This document shows, piece after piece, positions 26,439-28,994 of a DNA stretch of 64,000 bases (its first letter is position 1; every line of letters starts with the position of its first letter). Source of the stretch: Escherichia phage SSBS18_WS_10_728. The notes under the pieces were generated by a model. The model saw only the letters and a list, made by a program, of their open reading frames with translations. It had not been told where the DNA came from and did no database searches. The DNA lies in sequence record MT322327.1, one strand, 5' to 3'. The translations under genes were made by a program, and so were the position numbers.

Positions 26439-26570
26439 CCAGACCGTTGTTTATCATCTTAAGTGCTACCATTACACCAACTCGACATCTGCCGAGTGAA
26501 GGAATCGAACCTTCGCCTTTTCTTTACCGGAGAAATAGATTGTTTAAGTTTTGCTGTAAACGGTCTTCTG
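26439..26570 (-). ncRNA. Y-RNA-like (YrlA-like) candidate with circularly permuted tRNA-like domain
   Basis: On minus strand: closing stem CAGAAGACCG/CGGUCUGG enclosing, in order, T-arm (GAAGG-UUCGAUU-CCUUC), acceptor-like hairpin (ACUCGGC-AGAU-GUCGAGU) and D-arm (GUUGGUGUAAUGGUAGCAC); this order is permuted relative to a tRNA. Confidence 0.4.
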
Positions 26571-26583
26571 TAAATTTGTTGAG

Positions 26584-26660
26584 CCAGACCAAGTTTTAAA
26601 TTTTTTCAAAATTAAATTGGCTTGAAAATATCATACGTGCTTGCTGAATTTGGTCTTCTG
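26584..26660 (-). ncRNA. Y-like hairpin element, copy 2 (no tRNA-like domain)
   Basis: Same closing stem with compensatory change (CCAGACCA ... TGGTCTTCTG) and conserved CAGCAA motif next to the stem. Confidence 0.3.
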
Positions 26661-26748
26661 CTCCTTTAAAGAACACTCGTAAGAACCCTTTAAGGGAGGG
26701 GCTAAAATAGCCCTCTCAAAACATCATCTTGAAATACTTATTATAATT

Positions 26749-26826
26749 TGGCGGTTACGAAGGGATTTGAACCCTCATCATCTCCCGTGACAGGGGAGTA
26801 TTTTAACCAGATTAAACTACATAACC
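26749..26826 (-). tRNA. tRNA-Asp (anticodon GTC)
   Basis: Acceptor GGTTATG/CGTAACC, anticodon stem-loop CTCCC-CTGTCAC-GGGAG, T-arm GAGGG-TTCAAAT-CCCTT, G73. Confidence 0.7.
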
Positions 26827-26832
26827 TTTATT

Positions 26833-26920
26833 TGGTGTGCCGTGTAGGAGTCGAACCTACCGAGTCTCAATGACAAGGGATTTACAGTCCCCACCGCTAC
26901 CATCTACGGGATAACGACAC
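26833..26920 (-). tRNA. tRNA-Tyr (anticodon GTA), type II
   Basis: Acceptor GTGTCGT/ACGGCAC, anticodon stem-loop GGGGA-CTGTAAA-TCCCT, long variable arm, T-arm GTAGG-TTCGACT-CCTAC, A73. Confidence 0.65.
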
Positions 26921-26929
26921 ATTTAAATT

Positions 26930-27006
26930 TGGCGGTTAGTCAGGGATTCGAACCCTGTGCCATTCGCTTAACAGGCGACCGCACATACCTTATGTGCTTC
27001 CTAACC
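26930..27006 (-). tRNA. tRNA-Asn (anticodon GTT)
   Basis: D stem GCAC/GTGC, anticodon loop CTGTTAA, T-arm CAGGG-TTCGAAT-CCCTG, G73. Confidence 0.7.
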
Positions 27007-27037
27007 TTAATACATTGCCAGACCGTGTTTTTTCTTT

Positions 27038-27077
27038 TATCCGCAAAAAGTATTTTGTTGCTGAATACGGTCTTCTG
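27038..27077 (-). ncRNA. Y-like hairpin element, copy 3 (short)
   Basis: CCAGACCG ... TTGCTGAATACGGTCTTCTG with AT-rich interior, between tRNA-Asn and the second tRNA-Met. Confidence 0.3.
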
Positions 27078-27083
27078 CAAAAT

Positions 27084-27160
27084 TGGAGGCGGGTGCAGGA
27101 GTCGAACCTGCCGATACCATGCTAATGAGACATGTGAGACGCCCTTTCTCTATACCCGCA
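27084..27160 (-). tRNA. tRNA-Met (anticodon CAT), second copy; unpaired 1-72 hints at initiator
   Basis: Anticodon stem-loop CATGT-CTCATTA-GCATG, D stem GAGA/TCTC, T-arm GCAGG-TTCGACT-CCTGC; first acceptor pair mismatched. Confidence 0.55.
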
Positions 27161-27171
27161 ATTCTTAATGA

Positions 27172-27244
27172 CCAGACCAAATCTCTTCTTTGTCCGATTT
27201 ACCTTCAGATGAATAAGATTAAGTTTGCTGTAATTGGTCTTCTG
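27172..27244 (-). ncRNA. Y-like hairpin element, copy 4
   Basis: CCAGACCA ... TTGCTGTAATTGGTCTTCTG; covariation with copies 1 and 3 preserves pairing. Confidence 0.3.
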
Positions 27245-27251
27245 TCAAAAC

Positions 27252-27329
27252 TGGCGTTCCAGAAGGGATTTGAACCCTCAAATATCCACTTTGAAAGAGT
27301 GGTGACTTTACCATTTTGTCCACTGGAAC
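27252..27329 (-). tRNA. tRNA-Glu (anticodon TTC)
   Basis: Acceptor GTTCCAG/CTGGAAC, anticodon stem-loop CCACT-CTTTCAA-AGTGG, T-arm GAGGG-TTCAAAT-CCCTT, G73. Confidence 0.7.
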
Positions 27330-27336
27330 ATTAATT

Positions 27337-27413
27337 TGGTCTCTGTTGGAGGACTTGAACCTCCGGCCTTACCGCCCCAAACGGAACGCTCTACCAAGCT
27401 GAGCTAAACAGAG
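27337..27413 (-). tRNA. tRNA-Pro (anticodon TGG)
   Basis: Acceptor CTCTGTT/AACAGAG, D-arm GCTCAGCTTGGTAGAGC, anticodon loop TTTGGGG, T-arm GGAGG-TTCAAGT-CCTCC, A73. Confidence 0.7.
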
Positions 27414-27537
27414 ATAAACTTTTCAAACTCTATGTAACCACTTTAACATTATTTTTTAGTGGTTGTCAAGAACTTTTTTAAAATATTTTTCAGTATCTTA
27501 GAAAAGCTCTCATTTCGTTTCTATGTAGAACATATTA

Positions 27538-27572
27538 AAGGGTATCAAACACATTGTCAATACCCTTTTTAA
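27538..27572. terminator. terminator-like hairpin
   Basis: 8 bp stem AAGGGTAT/ATACCCTT followed by TTTTT on plus strand, between tRNA cluster and vWA gene. Confidence 0.35.
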
Positions 27573-27578
27573 AACTTT

Positions 27579-28994
27579 TTACCAGATGTAACGGTCAATC
27601 ATTACTGCTTTGAGCATTACGCTGGTTGGGTCAAACTTCTCACCACCAAGCAGAGCTTTTAAAGTGGCTGGAGAGAACCCTGATACCATTGCTACACCGT
27701 TATCCTTAACAGATACTTCGCAAGTACCATTACGGTTTGCTAAGTACCAGAATACCAGTTGTGGCATTTCGTATCCAGCTTTTTTGTACTTACTACGAAT
27801 TGCTTCAAAGTTTGTACGACCATTTGCACCATCAACCTGATTAAACTCCATATCAGAGAAGATGATAAGCTTACTTGGCATATCTTTCTGAGTCAAGTTG
27901 TTTCTCTTACCTGTCTCAAGAATACGGTCAAAAGCTGCTTGTAAATTAGTTGAACCATACTCAACATGACGCATCACCTGACGATGACGGTTTCGTAAAT
28001 CACCACTCAGTTCGATGAAGTGAGGGTTTGTTGAGTAAACCATTAACTCATTCTTAAAGCAACCAGTATTGCGTTCTGCTACATACAAGGCAAGTGATAC
28101 ACCAATATCAAGTGCAGTGATTGAACCAAGATTCACCCAAGACATTGAGCTTGAAACATCAGTCATACACAAGATGTTCTCACCTTCTGCCATCCAGTTT
28201 GGTAGTGCTTTCCACTGCTCATTGGCAACATCTGCATTACCATGTTTGATAGACTTAATCACATCGTATGGGTAAACAGCACCAGCGTTAATCTTAGCCT
28301 CACCCTTTGAGAGTGACTCGATGTAAGCTTTGTAACGTTCTCCATCTTTACGGTTAAAGAGTTTTTGGTAACGTGCAGCAGCAAGAGAAGGAATCTTACT
28401 GTAGTCGATTTTACCAAACTCATTAGCAGAGATTTTTTGCTCAACTGTATCAGAAAGTGCAGACAACAGTGTGCGGTACTCTTTCTCACTCAAGTTAGCA
28501 AACTTGCAGAAACGTTTTACAAACTGTTTGTGGCGTGGTTTTACTCGTGGTAACCACTTGGCTGCTAAACCTGCTGTTTCAGGGTCTAGTAATGCTGCTT
28601 CTAAGTGCTTAAAGGCATCTGTCTCAAAACGAGTACCTACGAAGATTTTGAAGTCATCAAAACGACCAAGCTCTGCAATCTTATCCATAATGCGAAGAAC
28701 CTGTGTAGGCTCTAAAACTTTATCTTCAATTGCTTGAAGTAAAACAGTTCTGAAGGCTTTACGCTCACCCATACCTTCTCGTACATCTCGCATGTGAAGC
28801 AAAATACGAACTGCAACATCAACATCCTCACGCAAAGCTTTGTAGAACAAATCTGGTAAGATTTCTACATTACTACGGCTGGAACCAGCAGCTTTGTAAA
28901 AGTCCACAAGAGCAGACATTGATGAAGTATGGTTTACAGCACCATTTTCAGTTCGACCTGCATGAAGGTGCGCATGTTTAAATAATTCGCTCAT
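27579..28994 (-). CDS. vWA-domain protein with MIDAS motif; possible Ro60/Rsr-like
   Basis: 471 aa; N-terminal ~260 aa helical region plus C-terminal vWA-like region with DxSxS (CMTDVSSSMS); TROVE/Ro60 relationship is inference only. Confidence 0.55.
   Translation of the reverse strand: MSELFKHAHLHAGRTENGAVNHTSSMSALVDFYKAAGSSRSNVEILPDLFYKALREDVDVAVRILLHMRDVREGMGERKAFRTVLLQAIEDKVLEPTQVLRIMDKIAELGRFDDFKIFVGTRFETDAFKHLEAALLDPETAGLAAKWLPRVKPRHKQFVKRFCKFANLSEKEYRTLLSALSDTVEQKISANEFGKIDYSKIPSLAAARYQKLFNRKDGERYKAYIESLSKGEAKINAGAVYPYDVIKSIKHGNADVANEQWKALPNWMAEGENILCMTDVSSSMSWVNLGSITALDIGVSLALYVAERNTGCFKNELMVYSTNPHFIELSGDLRNRHRQVMRHVEYGSTNLQAAFDRILETGKRNNLTQKDMPSKLIIFSDMEFNQVDGANGRTNFEAIRSKYKKAGYEMPQLVFWYLANRNGTCEVSVKDNGVAMVSGFSPATLKALLGGEKFDPTSVMLKAVMIDRYIW

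Follow-up and report, generated by a model that had tools for sequence, protein, structure and literature searches.

The genome of Escherichia phage SSBS18_WS_10_728 (sequence record MT322327.1) carries a 471-codon gene directly upstream, in the direction of transcription, of a large tRNA cluster, and four copies of a short repeated element lie scattered among the tRNA genes. Do this gene and these elements encode a Ro60-like protein and its Y RNA partners? We addressed the question on a stretch of 64,000 nucleotides of this genome (hereafter the window), which is 96-98% identical to the genomes of Felixounavirus, the Felix O1-like phages of Escherichia and Salmonella. The original prediction, drawn from the letters of this stretch, had proposed a Ro60-like protein together with Y-RNA-like elements, one of which would contain a circularly permuted tRNA-like domain; the sequence comparisons reported below support that interpretation. 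The elements belong to an RNA family with a covarying stem, which across phage lineages is linked to the gene both by strand and by distance. We consider it probable that the protein and the four downstream RNAs together make up a Ro60/Y-RNA-like ribonucleoprotein, for which we infer the stability of the RNAs as transcripts, their binding by the protein and the role of the complex. The features concerned are the following.

27579..28994, minus strand: gene of the 471-residue Ro60-fold protein, with helical repeats at the N terminus (Pfam DUF2828) and, at the C terminus, a vWA domain with its MIDAS (metal ion-dependent adhesion site; Pfam DUF7788)
22385..27413, minus strand: tRNA cluster of 26 genes (ARAGORN, Rfam), with elements 1 to 4 interspersed
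27170..27246, minus strand: element 4, short Y-like RNA between tRNA-Glu and tRNA-Met
27016..27079, minus strand: element 3, short Y-like RNA between tRNA-Met and tRNA-Asn
26582..26662, minus strand: element 2, short Y-like RNA with a central A/U hairpin (covariance-model match)
26437..26572, minus strand: element 1, long Y-like RNA enclosing a tRNA-like domain (5' module matched by the covariance model)
26463..26535, minus strand: circularly permuted tRNA-like domain of element 1 (fold, ARAGORN after permutation, covariation)

Four elements with a shared covarying stem

Exactly four copies of the sequence GGTCTTCTG are present in the 64 kb, at positions 26562, 26652, 27069 and 27236, all within 26562-27244. 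Each occurrence is partnered by CCAGACC, at 26439, 26584, 27018 and 27172, respectively, the partners being 50 to 125 nucleotides apart. Four elements with a common closing stem had been announced and are indeed present, on the minus strand; the start given for the third of them (27038) was wrong, CCAGACC lying at 27018 and the element spanning 27018-27077. Read on the minus strand, all four have the form 5'-NNN-AGA-AGACCR(N)-UWW-CAGCAA ... (N)YGGUCU-G-NNN-3'. The main stem is AGACCAA/UUGGUCU in elements 2 and 4 and AGACCGU/ACGGUCU in element 3, and comprises 8 base pairs in element 1, where 26559-26566 pairs with 26441-26448. The bases separating this stem from CAGCAA are UUA in elements 1 (CAGCAA at 26551-26556) and 4, and AUU in elements 2 and 3. 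Element 4 contains a central hairpin of 5 base pairs with a 7-nucleotide loop.

The compensatory covariation noticed at the outset was recovered, with CCG/CGG (G:C) in copies 1 and 3 and CCA/UGG (A:U) in copies 2 and 4, and it extends further: the next inner stem pair also changes among the four copies, and a 3-base-pair outer helix differs in all of them yet stays paired (UAC/GUA, AGC/GCU, UGC/GCA and GAC/GUC in elements 1, 2, 3 and 4, respectively). This outer helix was discarded as a general family feature, being specific to the Felix group.

A covariance model was built from 29 short members of the family, with elements 3 and 4 in the seed and element 2 outside it. It matched the seed members element 4 (47.9 bits, E 2e-9) and element 3 (46.9 bits, E 4e-9), the non-seed element 2 (36.1 bits, E 2e-6) and the 5' half of element 1, and the scan of the window returned nothing comparable outside the four elements. 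A chance origin of the four elements is thereby excluded.

A permuted tRNA-like domain in element 1

Within its closing stem, element 1 forms four hairpins, all present in its minimum-free-energy fold. These are, in 5' to 3' order, a V hairpin UUUCU-CCGGUAA-AGAAA (26519-26535; 5 base pairs, 7-nucleotide loop), a canonical T arm GAAGG-UUCGAUU-CCUUC (26498-26514), an acceptor-like hairpin ACUCGGC-AGAU-GUCGAGU (26480-26497; 7 base pairs, loop AGAU) and a canonical D arm GUGU-AAUGGUA-GCAC (26463-26477), the latter preceded by U-G, the equivalents of U8-G9. The T arm, acceptor-like stem and D arm read in this copy by the original prediction are therefore all there, in the order it gave.

ARAGORN called no tRNA at 26437-26572 in the native order. 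After circular permutation (acceptor-like hairpin opened, RNA ends joined) it called an intron-containing tRNA, and it drew a clean cloverleaf once the closing stem of the permuted RNA was replaced by a neutral anticodon arm. Element 1 itself has no anticodon arm, the family stem occupying that place. The Rfam tRNA model reached 22 bits over 26497-26547 only (gathering score 29). From the ARAGORN and Rfam results, we rejected element 1 as a tRNA, or as a permuted tRNA gene with a complete cloverleaf. The annotations 'tRNA pseudogene' and 'tRNA-OTHER' found in relatives were also rejected as counterparts of element 1, since they denote tRNA-Tyr.

Among eight Felix-group variants of element 1, 3 of the 7 pairs of the acceptor-like helix change on both sides with 100% of the cells paired, ACUCGGC/GUCGAGU becoming ACACGU/GCGUGU and ACCCUUC/GAAGGGU, and the T and D arms are essentially invariant. 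A predicted inner helix CUUAA/UUAAG was not kept in loci L012 and L013 and was omitted from the model.

The RNA module follows the gene across phage lineages

We compared 80 loci together with those of Yersinia phage P778 and Vibrio phage phi-pp2, of which 51-52 are non-redundant, the homologous proteins having about 40-60% identity. The module common to these loci starts with A, U or G, followed by G and R, four free bases, three further bases and CAGCAA; further on comes the exact complement of the first seven bases, then a G. CAGCAA stands exactly ten bases from the first A of the module. Homologous loci keep this module beside the gene and on its strand while the stem changes freely in a compensatory manner, as the alignment of related phages had been expected to reveal if the helix were real.

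A first scan of all loci demanded stem pairing. The scan was then repeated with selection on the motif AGRN4DWHCAGCAA alone, and 55 sites were found on the gene strand versus 1 on the other in the 52 non-redundant loci. A perfect 7-base-pair complement was present 20 to 240 nucleotides downstream of 41 of these 55 sites, versus 3 to 8 of 55 for control 7-mers (reversed, shuffled or displaced). Counted by strand, 76 elements lie on the gene strand versus 4 on the opposite one; the distance to the gene is less than 500 nucleotides for 43 of the 76. In the stem, 6 of the 7 pairs change on both sides and 99.5% of the cells are paired, a figure that is not independent because the sequences were pre-selected for pairing. 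When the covariance model R1 was run over 750 kb of related loci, its 52 matches at E<=0.01 all fell on the gene strand, some of them in loci missed by the pattern scan. Pattern and model matches combined, at least one element is present in 42 of 51 loci. In P778, read by eye, three elements follow the gene with the same UWWCAGCAA and other stems (GGACUG/CAGUCC, GGAUUC/GAAUCC and GGACUC/GAGUCC).

The same association was observed in the reverse direction. When GGTTCCTTACAGCAA, the 15-mer of one lineage, was searched in IMG/VR, 45 of the 63 sites with a complementary stem adjoined a DUF2828 gene, all 45 on the strand of that gene, versus 1 of the 40 sites lacking the stem (40 being about the chance expectation). 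Moreover, elements adjoin the gene in many loci devoid of any tRNA gene (for example L020, L023, L041 and L064), so that it is the protein gene, rather than a tRNA cluster, with which they are associated. Same-strand adjacency typically amounts to 30-420 nucleotides, across lineages at about 40% protein identity. The first element often lies 29-36 nucleotides past the stop codon or ends 60-75 nucleotides ahead of the start codon; there are up to five copies per locus, some of them 6-8 kb from the gene within tRNA clusters. In the window, elements 1 to 4 lie 339 to 1013 nucleotides downstream of the protein gene on the same strand, that is, within a few kb of a Ro60-type gene, as is characteristic of bacterial Y RNAs. 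Their paired 5' and 3' ends, which close an internal module through a stem of 7-8 base pairs, are likewise a Y RNA trait.

Three classes of cargo

What the module encloses varies widely. Most members have no tRNA-like part, and the short ones enclose 25-45 nucleotides of A-rich sequence or a small hairpin. The T arm, acceptor-like hairpin and D arm recur in the order of element 1 in unrelated lineages (L020, L036, L044, L077 and L082). Several acceptor-like loops of these longer members begin with (N)CCA, like a tRNA 3' end, and look as if they were derived from the junction of two tandem tRNA genes. Other members enclose a tRNA body in normal order: L077 10329-10427 presents a D arm, an anticodon-like arm and a T arm, and its part 10352-10413 scores 55.7 bits on the Rfam tRNA model (positions 5-66).

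The third class is a conserved RNA of about 210-250 nucleotides, found at L023 9471-9721, L038 4793-5032, L047 9521-9762 and L033 8540-~8800, as well as at L064 7652-7897, L082 7435-7673 and L002 2360-2573 and 4602-4848. The first four align with a mean identity of 72% and share highly conserved blocks, among them GAAGU..AUAGUAG.CCGU.GAAG.AGAAGCC and GUAAAAAGAGAUAUAGCUGCCGAGC; the order in this lineage is gene, short element, long element. This RNA of about 250 nucleotides had no Rfam match, either in L023 scanned at E<=1 or at the gathering threshold in related loci.

A protein of the Ro60 fold without the TROVE sequence signature

The product of 27579-28994 (minus strand) has 471 residues and includes DVSSSMS, as first described. 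At E<=1, Pfam matched DUF7788 and DUF2828 only, and the NCBIfam search gave nothing relevant. The protein is assigned to PHROG 850 under the name 'RNA-binding protein', which in PHROG and RefSeq is an annotation and not an experimental result. An N-terminal helical-repeat ring is followed by a vWA domain, as in the Ro60 fold. Of the MIDAS residues (DxSxS, T, D), namely D279, S281, S283, T349 and D381, none varies among 30 homologues (43-89% identity). Homologues of the protein are plentiful in phage contigs: the candidates scored include about 2,900 clusters at E<=1e-5, and relatives are encoded by no fewer than 598 IMG/VR stretches (viral contigs). The system is widespread, and it is experimentally tractable.

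The closest characterised relative is gp130 of phage Bas63, an orthologue 99% identical to the window protein, which was reported to resemble Ro60 structurally and to counter the Ppl defence (PhageMaP preprint, 2024, PMC11482910). Its gene is likewise located upstream of tRNA-Pro and the same four elements are present. In the Bas63 record they are unannotated, being located between tRNA genes where nothing is marked or beneath two small open reading frames labelled hypothetical, and the other records of relatives that we inspected also leave them unannotated. As to Y RNAs, the preprint offered only a guess, that they might be found among the annotated tRNA genes (PMC11482910); the elements described here, in contrast, are not annotated tRNA genes. 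A literature search on DUF2828, and on Felix O1 together with Y RNA, found nothing relevant, and the PhageMaP preprint is the one pertinent publication that we met for this gene family. The Ro60 resemblance of the protein has thus already been reported, while no earlier description of the RNA family, of its module or of its distribution appears to exist.

Comparison with known Ro60 and Y RNA systems

The bacterial YrlA RNAs are laid out as stem, V, T, acceptor-like stem-loop, D, stem; their gene shares the strand of rsr, from which it is no more than 4 kb away, and they carry the motif GNCGAAN0-1G (Chen et al. 2014, PMC4201824). As with Rsr and its YrlA and YrlB RNAs in Salmonella Typhimurium and Mycobacterium smegmatis, a gene for a ring-plus-vWA protein stands here beside several small RNAs of the same strand. 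The RNA ends pair, and the tRNA-like domain (V, T arm, acceptor-like hairpin and D arm, in this order) is enclosed by one RNA and missing from its shorter partners. The YrlA of M. smegmatis, whose acceptor-like stem has 7 base pairs, is cut by RNase P and receives CCA (PMC4201824). Because the acceptor-like stem of element 1 also has 7 base pairs, this element may, by analogy, be cut by RNase P.

There are also differences. Unlike Rsr, the phage protein is missed by the TROVE model and is some 50-60 residues shorter. Unlike YrlA, the phage RNAs have AGR-stem-NNN-CAGCAA in place of GNCGAAN0-1G, a shorter stem and no Rfam match. Finally, the elements lie inside a phage tRNA cluster with no rtcBA repair operon nearby, in contrast to the bacterial rsr setting; neither RtcB nor a ligase or other RNA repair gene was found near the protein gene in the window.

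Phage examples were known previously, all of them annotated TROVE proteins, in mycobacteriophages, CcrColossus, Bacillus phage G and Thermus phage phiLo. The phiLo Ro60 binds two adjacent Yrl RNAs, Yrl1 and Yrl2 (PMC12135203; PDB 9KOP, 9L5Y). Its RNAs carry CGAA and its protein is annotated TROVE, whereas both the protein family and the RNA motif differ here. Yrn1 of Deinococcus radiodurans is a Y RNA whose tRNA-like features come in another order relative to the ends. Some phage members, such as L077 10329-10427, similarly order their tRNA-like arms differently, but they have no sequence relationship to Yrn1 and a different protein-binding motif.

The stable RNAs C and D of T4 (species 1 and 2) are also small RNAs of unknown function that lie among the tRNA genes of a phage, and a T-arm-like hairpin forms the end of rnaC. 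They were rejected as members of the family, having no AGR-stem/CAGCAA module and no significant model match; the sole match in the model scan of the T4 region, at 14.1 bits (E 0.13), fell outside rnaC and rnaD.

How far does the Ro60/Y-RNA reading hold?

Several observations weigh against a Ro60/Y-RNA-like particle. At E<=1 in Pfam the TROVE sequence model failed to match the protein, and neither phmmer nor a 30-sequence profile found any Ro60 at E<=10 among all PDB sequences. No Rfam family matched the elements, even at E<=10. The known Ro-binding motifs (GNCGAAN0-1G in bacteria, GGUCCGA in animals) are absent and AGACCR-UWW-CAGCAA stands instead. The helix is short for a Y RNA stem, with 7-8 base pairs, plus 3 in the Felix group only, and 9 of the 51 loci show no element in the locus sequence examined. 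Furthermore, T7 regains growth on the Ppl strain when gp130 by itself is supplied, either on a plasmid or in the T7 genome (PMC11482910), and the RNAs are therefore not needed for that phenotype.

As regards the protein, the Ro60-like claim stood for the ring-then-vWA fold and the MIDAS and fell for the TROVE model and the PDB sequence searches. The protein is of the Ro60 fold, yet it fails the sequence test of the TROVE family, and the best explanation is a very divergent member of the Ro60 structural class, combining a helical-repeat ring with a vWA/MIDAS domain. The Y-RNA-like claim held similarly for architecture and gene-strand linkage, and did not hold for the Rfam Y RNA and YrlA models or for the known Ro-binding motifs. 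With Rfam 15, no Y RNA or Yrl family was detected on 26290-27600 at E<=10 or over the whole window at the gathering threshold, which in eight related loci returned tRNAs only. Matches of Dicty_Class_I_RNA to elements 3 and 4 (24 and 19.7 bits; gathering score 41.5) were taken as chance. On these sequence criteria the elements are best described as Y-like by architecture and genetic linkage, and not as YrlA members.

Proposed mechanism

We propose that the four downstream elements would be the Y-RNA-like partners of the protein. Each would present a fixed recognition module made of the A-U pair and the G-C pair with which a helix of 7-8 base pairs starts, its other pairs being free, of a single-stranded CAGCAA exactly three bases after the helix, and of a G after its 3' strand. 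The spacing of the invariant stem base, CAGCAA and 3' G is fixed amid varying sequence and for this reason suggests a protein-binding platform. Since the only gene consistently beside the module has the Ro60 fold, it is its product that we propose as the ligand, which would bind the module as Ro60 binds a Y RNA stem. The variable cargo, a small hairpin in elements 2 to 4 and, in element 1, a tRNA mimic with its ends moved to the anticodon-stem position, would be left exposed to engage host tRNA enzymes or nucleases, element 1 being possibly nicked by RNase P.

Elements 1 to 4 are probably co-transcribed with the tRNAs of the cluster. In the window, tRNA ends lie 6-11 nucleotides from the elements. 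The RNAs would most likely be transcribed from the promoter-like sites 27560-27532 and 27469-27440 and then be released by tRNA processing. The two sites are as follows.

27532..27560, minus strand: candidate sigma-70-like promoter TTGACA-17-TAATAT (consensus scan match only), between the protein gene and the tRNA/RNA cluster
27440..27469, minus strand: candidate sigma-70-like promoter TTGACA-18-TAAAGT with extended TG (consensus scan match only), directly upstream of tRNA-Pro

The former is overlapped by a 12-base-pair hairpin at 27537-27568.

The biological role is probably in counter-defence or in RNA surveillance during infection. A bolder proposal, which we put forward tentatively and hold as possible though doubtful, is that DUF2828 proteins and AGR-stem/CAGCAA RNAs form a second, phage-specific branch of Ro60/Y-RNA particles in which the RNA is a modular carrier and the particle a counter-defence device. 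The RNA would show tRNA mimics (permuted, acceptor-less, or RNase P-cleavable with an encoded CCA) or the RNA of about 250 nucleotides to host enzymes, and the particle might shield phage tRNAs, or trap or redirect a host nuclease such as Ppl or PNPase.

What bacterial Y RNAs do, and above all what their tRNA-like domain is for, is poorly understood, and the known systems are few and genetically hard. The putative pairing is now found in a phage of E. coli K-12, with a protein whose knockout has a clean phenotype, the loss of resistance to the Ppl defence. As the candidate RNA partners can be named to the base, binding, recruitment through the tRNA mimic and the counter-defence role become directly testable. 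These results also point to a likely role for a large family of proteins with a domain of unknown function (DUF2828), and they add an RNA family that genome annotation overlooks or covers with spurious open reading frames.

Alternative explanations

Could the RNAs be structured and gene-linked without being bound by the DUF2828 product? They would then act alone, as tRNA-mimic decoys or as substrates of RNase P, of the CCA-adding enzyme or of tRNA-targeting defence nucleases. The activity of gp130 against Ppl without the elements fits this possibility, as do the often tRNA-grade cargo modules, the acceptor-like loops starting with (N)CCA and the position of the Felix-group elements within a tRNA cluster. 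However, the invariant part of the family is not the tRNA-like cargo, which the majority of members do not have, but the stem base and CAGCAA at fixed spacing, which resemble a protein-binding platform, and adjacency to the gene on the same strand is kept tight over lineages with distant proteins. We judge this explanation unlikely, while taking it seriously.

Alternatively, the elements might be cis-acting parts of the DUF2828 transcript, such as stability structures in its untranslated regions or autoregulatory binding sites, and not separate stable RNAs. This would account for the first element being so close to the stop or start codon in many loci. It would not account for the two promoter-like sites and two tRNA genes that separate the gene from the nearest element in the window, nor for the multiple and sometimes distant copies, and a stabiliser of untranslated regions is not expected to have cargo such as the permuted tRNA or the conserved RNA of some 250 nucleotides. 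We therefore hold it for decidedly unlikely.

That the elements are by-products of the tRNA cluster (decayed tRNA genes, spacer repeats or precursor-processing signals) unlinked to the protein could be argued from their short distance to tRNA ends and from the fact that a tandem tRNA duplication junction could be the source of element 1. But the module flanks DUF2828 genes where no tRNA genes exist, compensatory change keeps its stem across lineages, the T4 tRNA cluster with its stable RNAs C and D is without it, and the reverse search tied it to the gene in 45 of 63 sites versus 1 of 40. This explanation is in our view very unlikely.

Lastly, a small protein encoded on the plus strand over elements 1 and 2 is hardly credible: the 85-codon open reading frame 26342-26599 exists and is annotated as a hypothetical protein in phage AYO145A, but it is antisense to every surrounding gene, close relatives are distinguished, within element 1, by indels of 1 nucleotide and of other lengths that are not multiples of three, the Bas63 annotation shows two shorter frames instead of one, and the substitutions follow the RNA pairing. 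The two Bas63 frames are bas63_0137 and bas63_0138 (L084 32748-33022), small hypothetical proteins antisense to elements 1 and 2. Since their lengths vary among close relatives and the region contains non-triplet indels, the small frames over elements 1 and 2 are probably spurious.

Other structured RNAs and neighbouring genes

The 147 nucleotides between element 1 and tRNA-Lys (26290-26436, minus strand) are closed by a near-perfect helix of 23 base pairs, AUUAUCUUUGUAGGUGAGCUAUU / GGUAGCUUAUCUACAAAGAUAAU, and fold with a minimum free energy of -48.9 kcal/mol (z = -5.65). This stretch may represent a further structured RNA that annotation has missed, or else a site for RNase III within the tRNA cluster. 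At about 25415-25500 (minus strand), a tRNA-like sequence was missed by ARAGORN and Rfam alike. It has an 8-base-pair acceptor stem ending in GCCA, a T arm GGGGUUCAACUCCUCC, an aberrant D region and an anticodon-like stem with a 9-nucleotide loop CCUCCAAAA containing CCA; tRNA-Trp is the sole amino-acid specificity absent among the 26 tRNAs called. The spacer between tRNA-Thr and tRNA-Val (24557-24651, minus strand) is also strongly structured (-30.7 kcal/mol, z = -3.2) and contains CUGAAGACCG, which resembles the start of an element, with no CAGCAA module. In this structured spacer, GGTCTTCAG at 24609 (one mismatch) was considered as a fifth copy and rejected for want of that module.

Directly upstream of the Ro60-like gene, 29076-29447 (minus strand) encodes a DUF5681 protein with a basic, glycine-rich N terminus. 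The Felix group and Yersinia phage P778 keep it at this position; no such gene was found at the remaining loci, and it was set aside as a general partner.

In P778 (L001), a 690-nucleotide gap of the tRNA cluster contains two further features: at about 11010-11150 a tRNA-like sequence whose D region and T arm are separated by a long insert and which may be a tRNA with an intron, and at about 11340-11390 an isolated T-arm-like hairpin. In several unrelated phage contigs, the strand of the DUF2828 gene also carries a transfer-messenger RNA gene no more than a few kb away (L040 15250-15619, L050 16827-17225, L055 16404-16805, L056 14119-14479, L065 16753-17121, L078 11710-12199 and L053 1968-2372). 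Near the gene in other phages, ARAGORN also called a tRNA that reads amber (anticodon CUA, called Pyl) and others whose anticodons have 2 or 4 bases, these unusual calls being located at L077 10919-10994, L036 3459-3537, L058 16527-16603 and L067 14542-14618.

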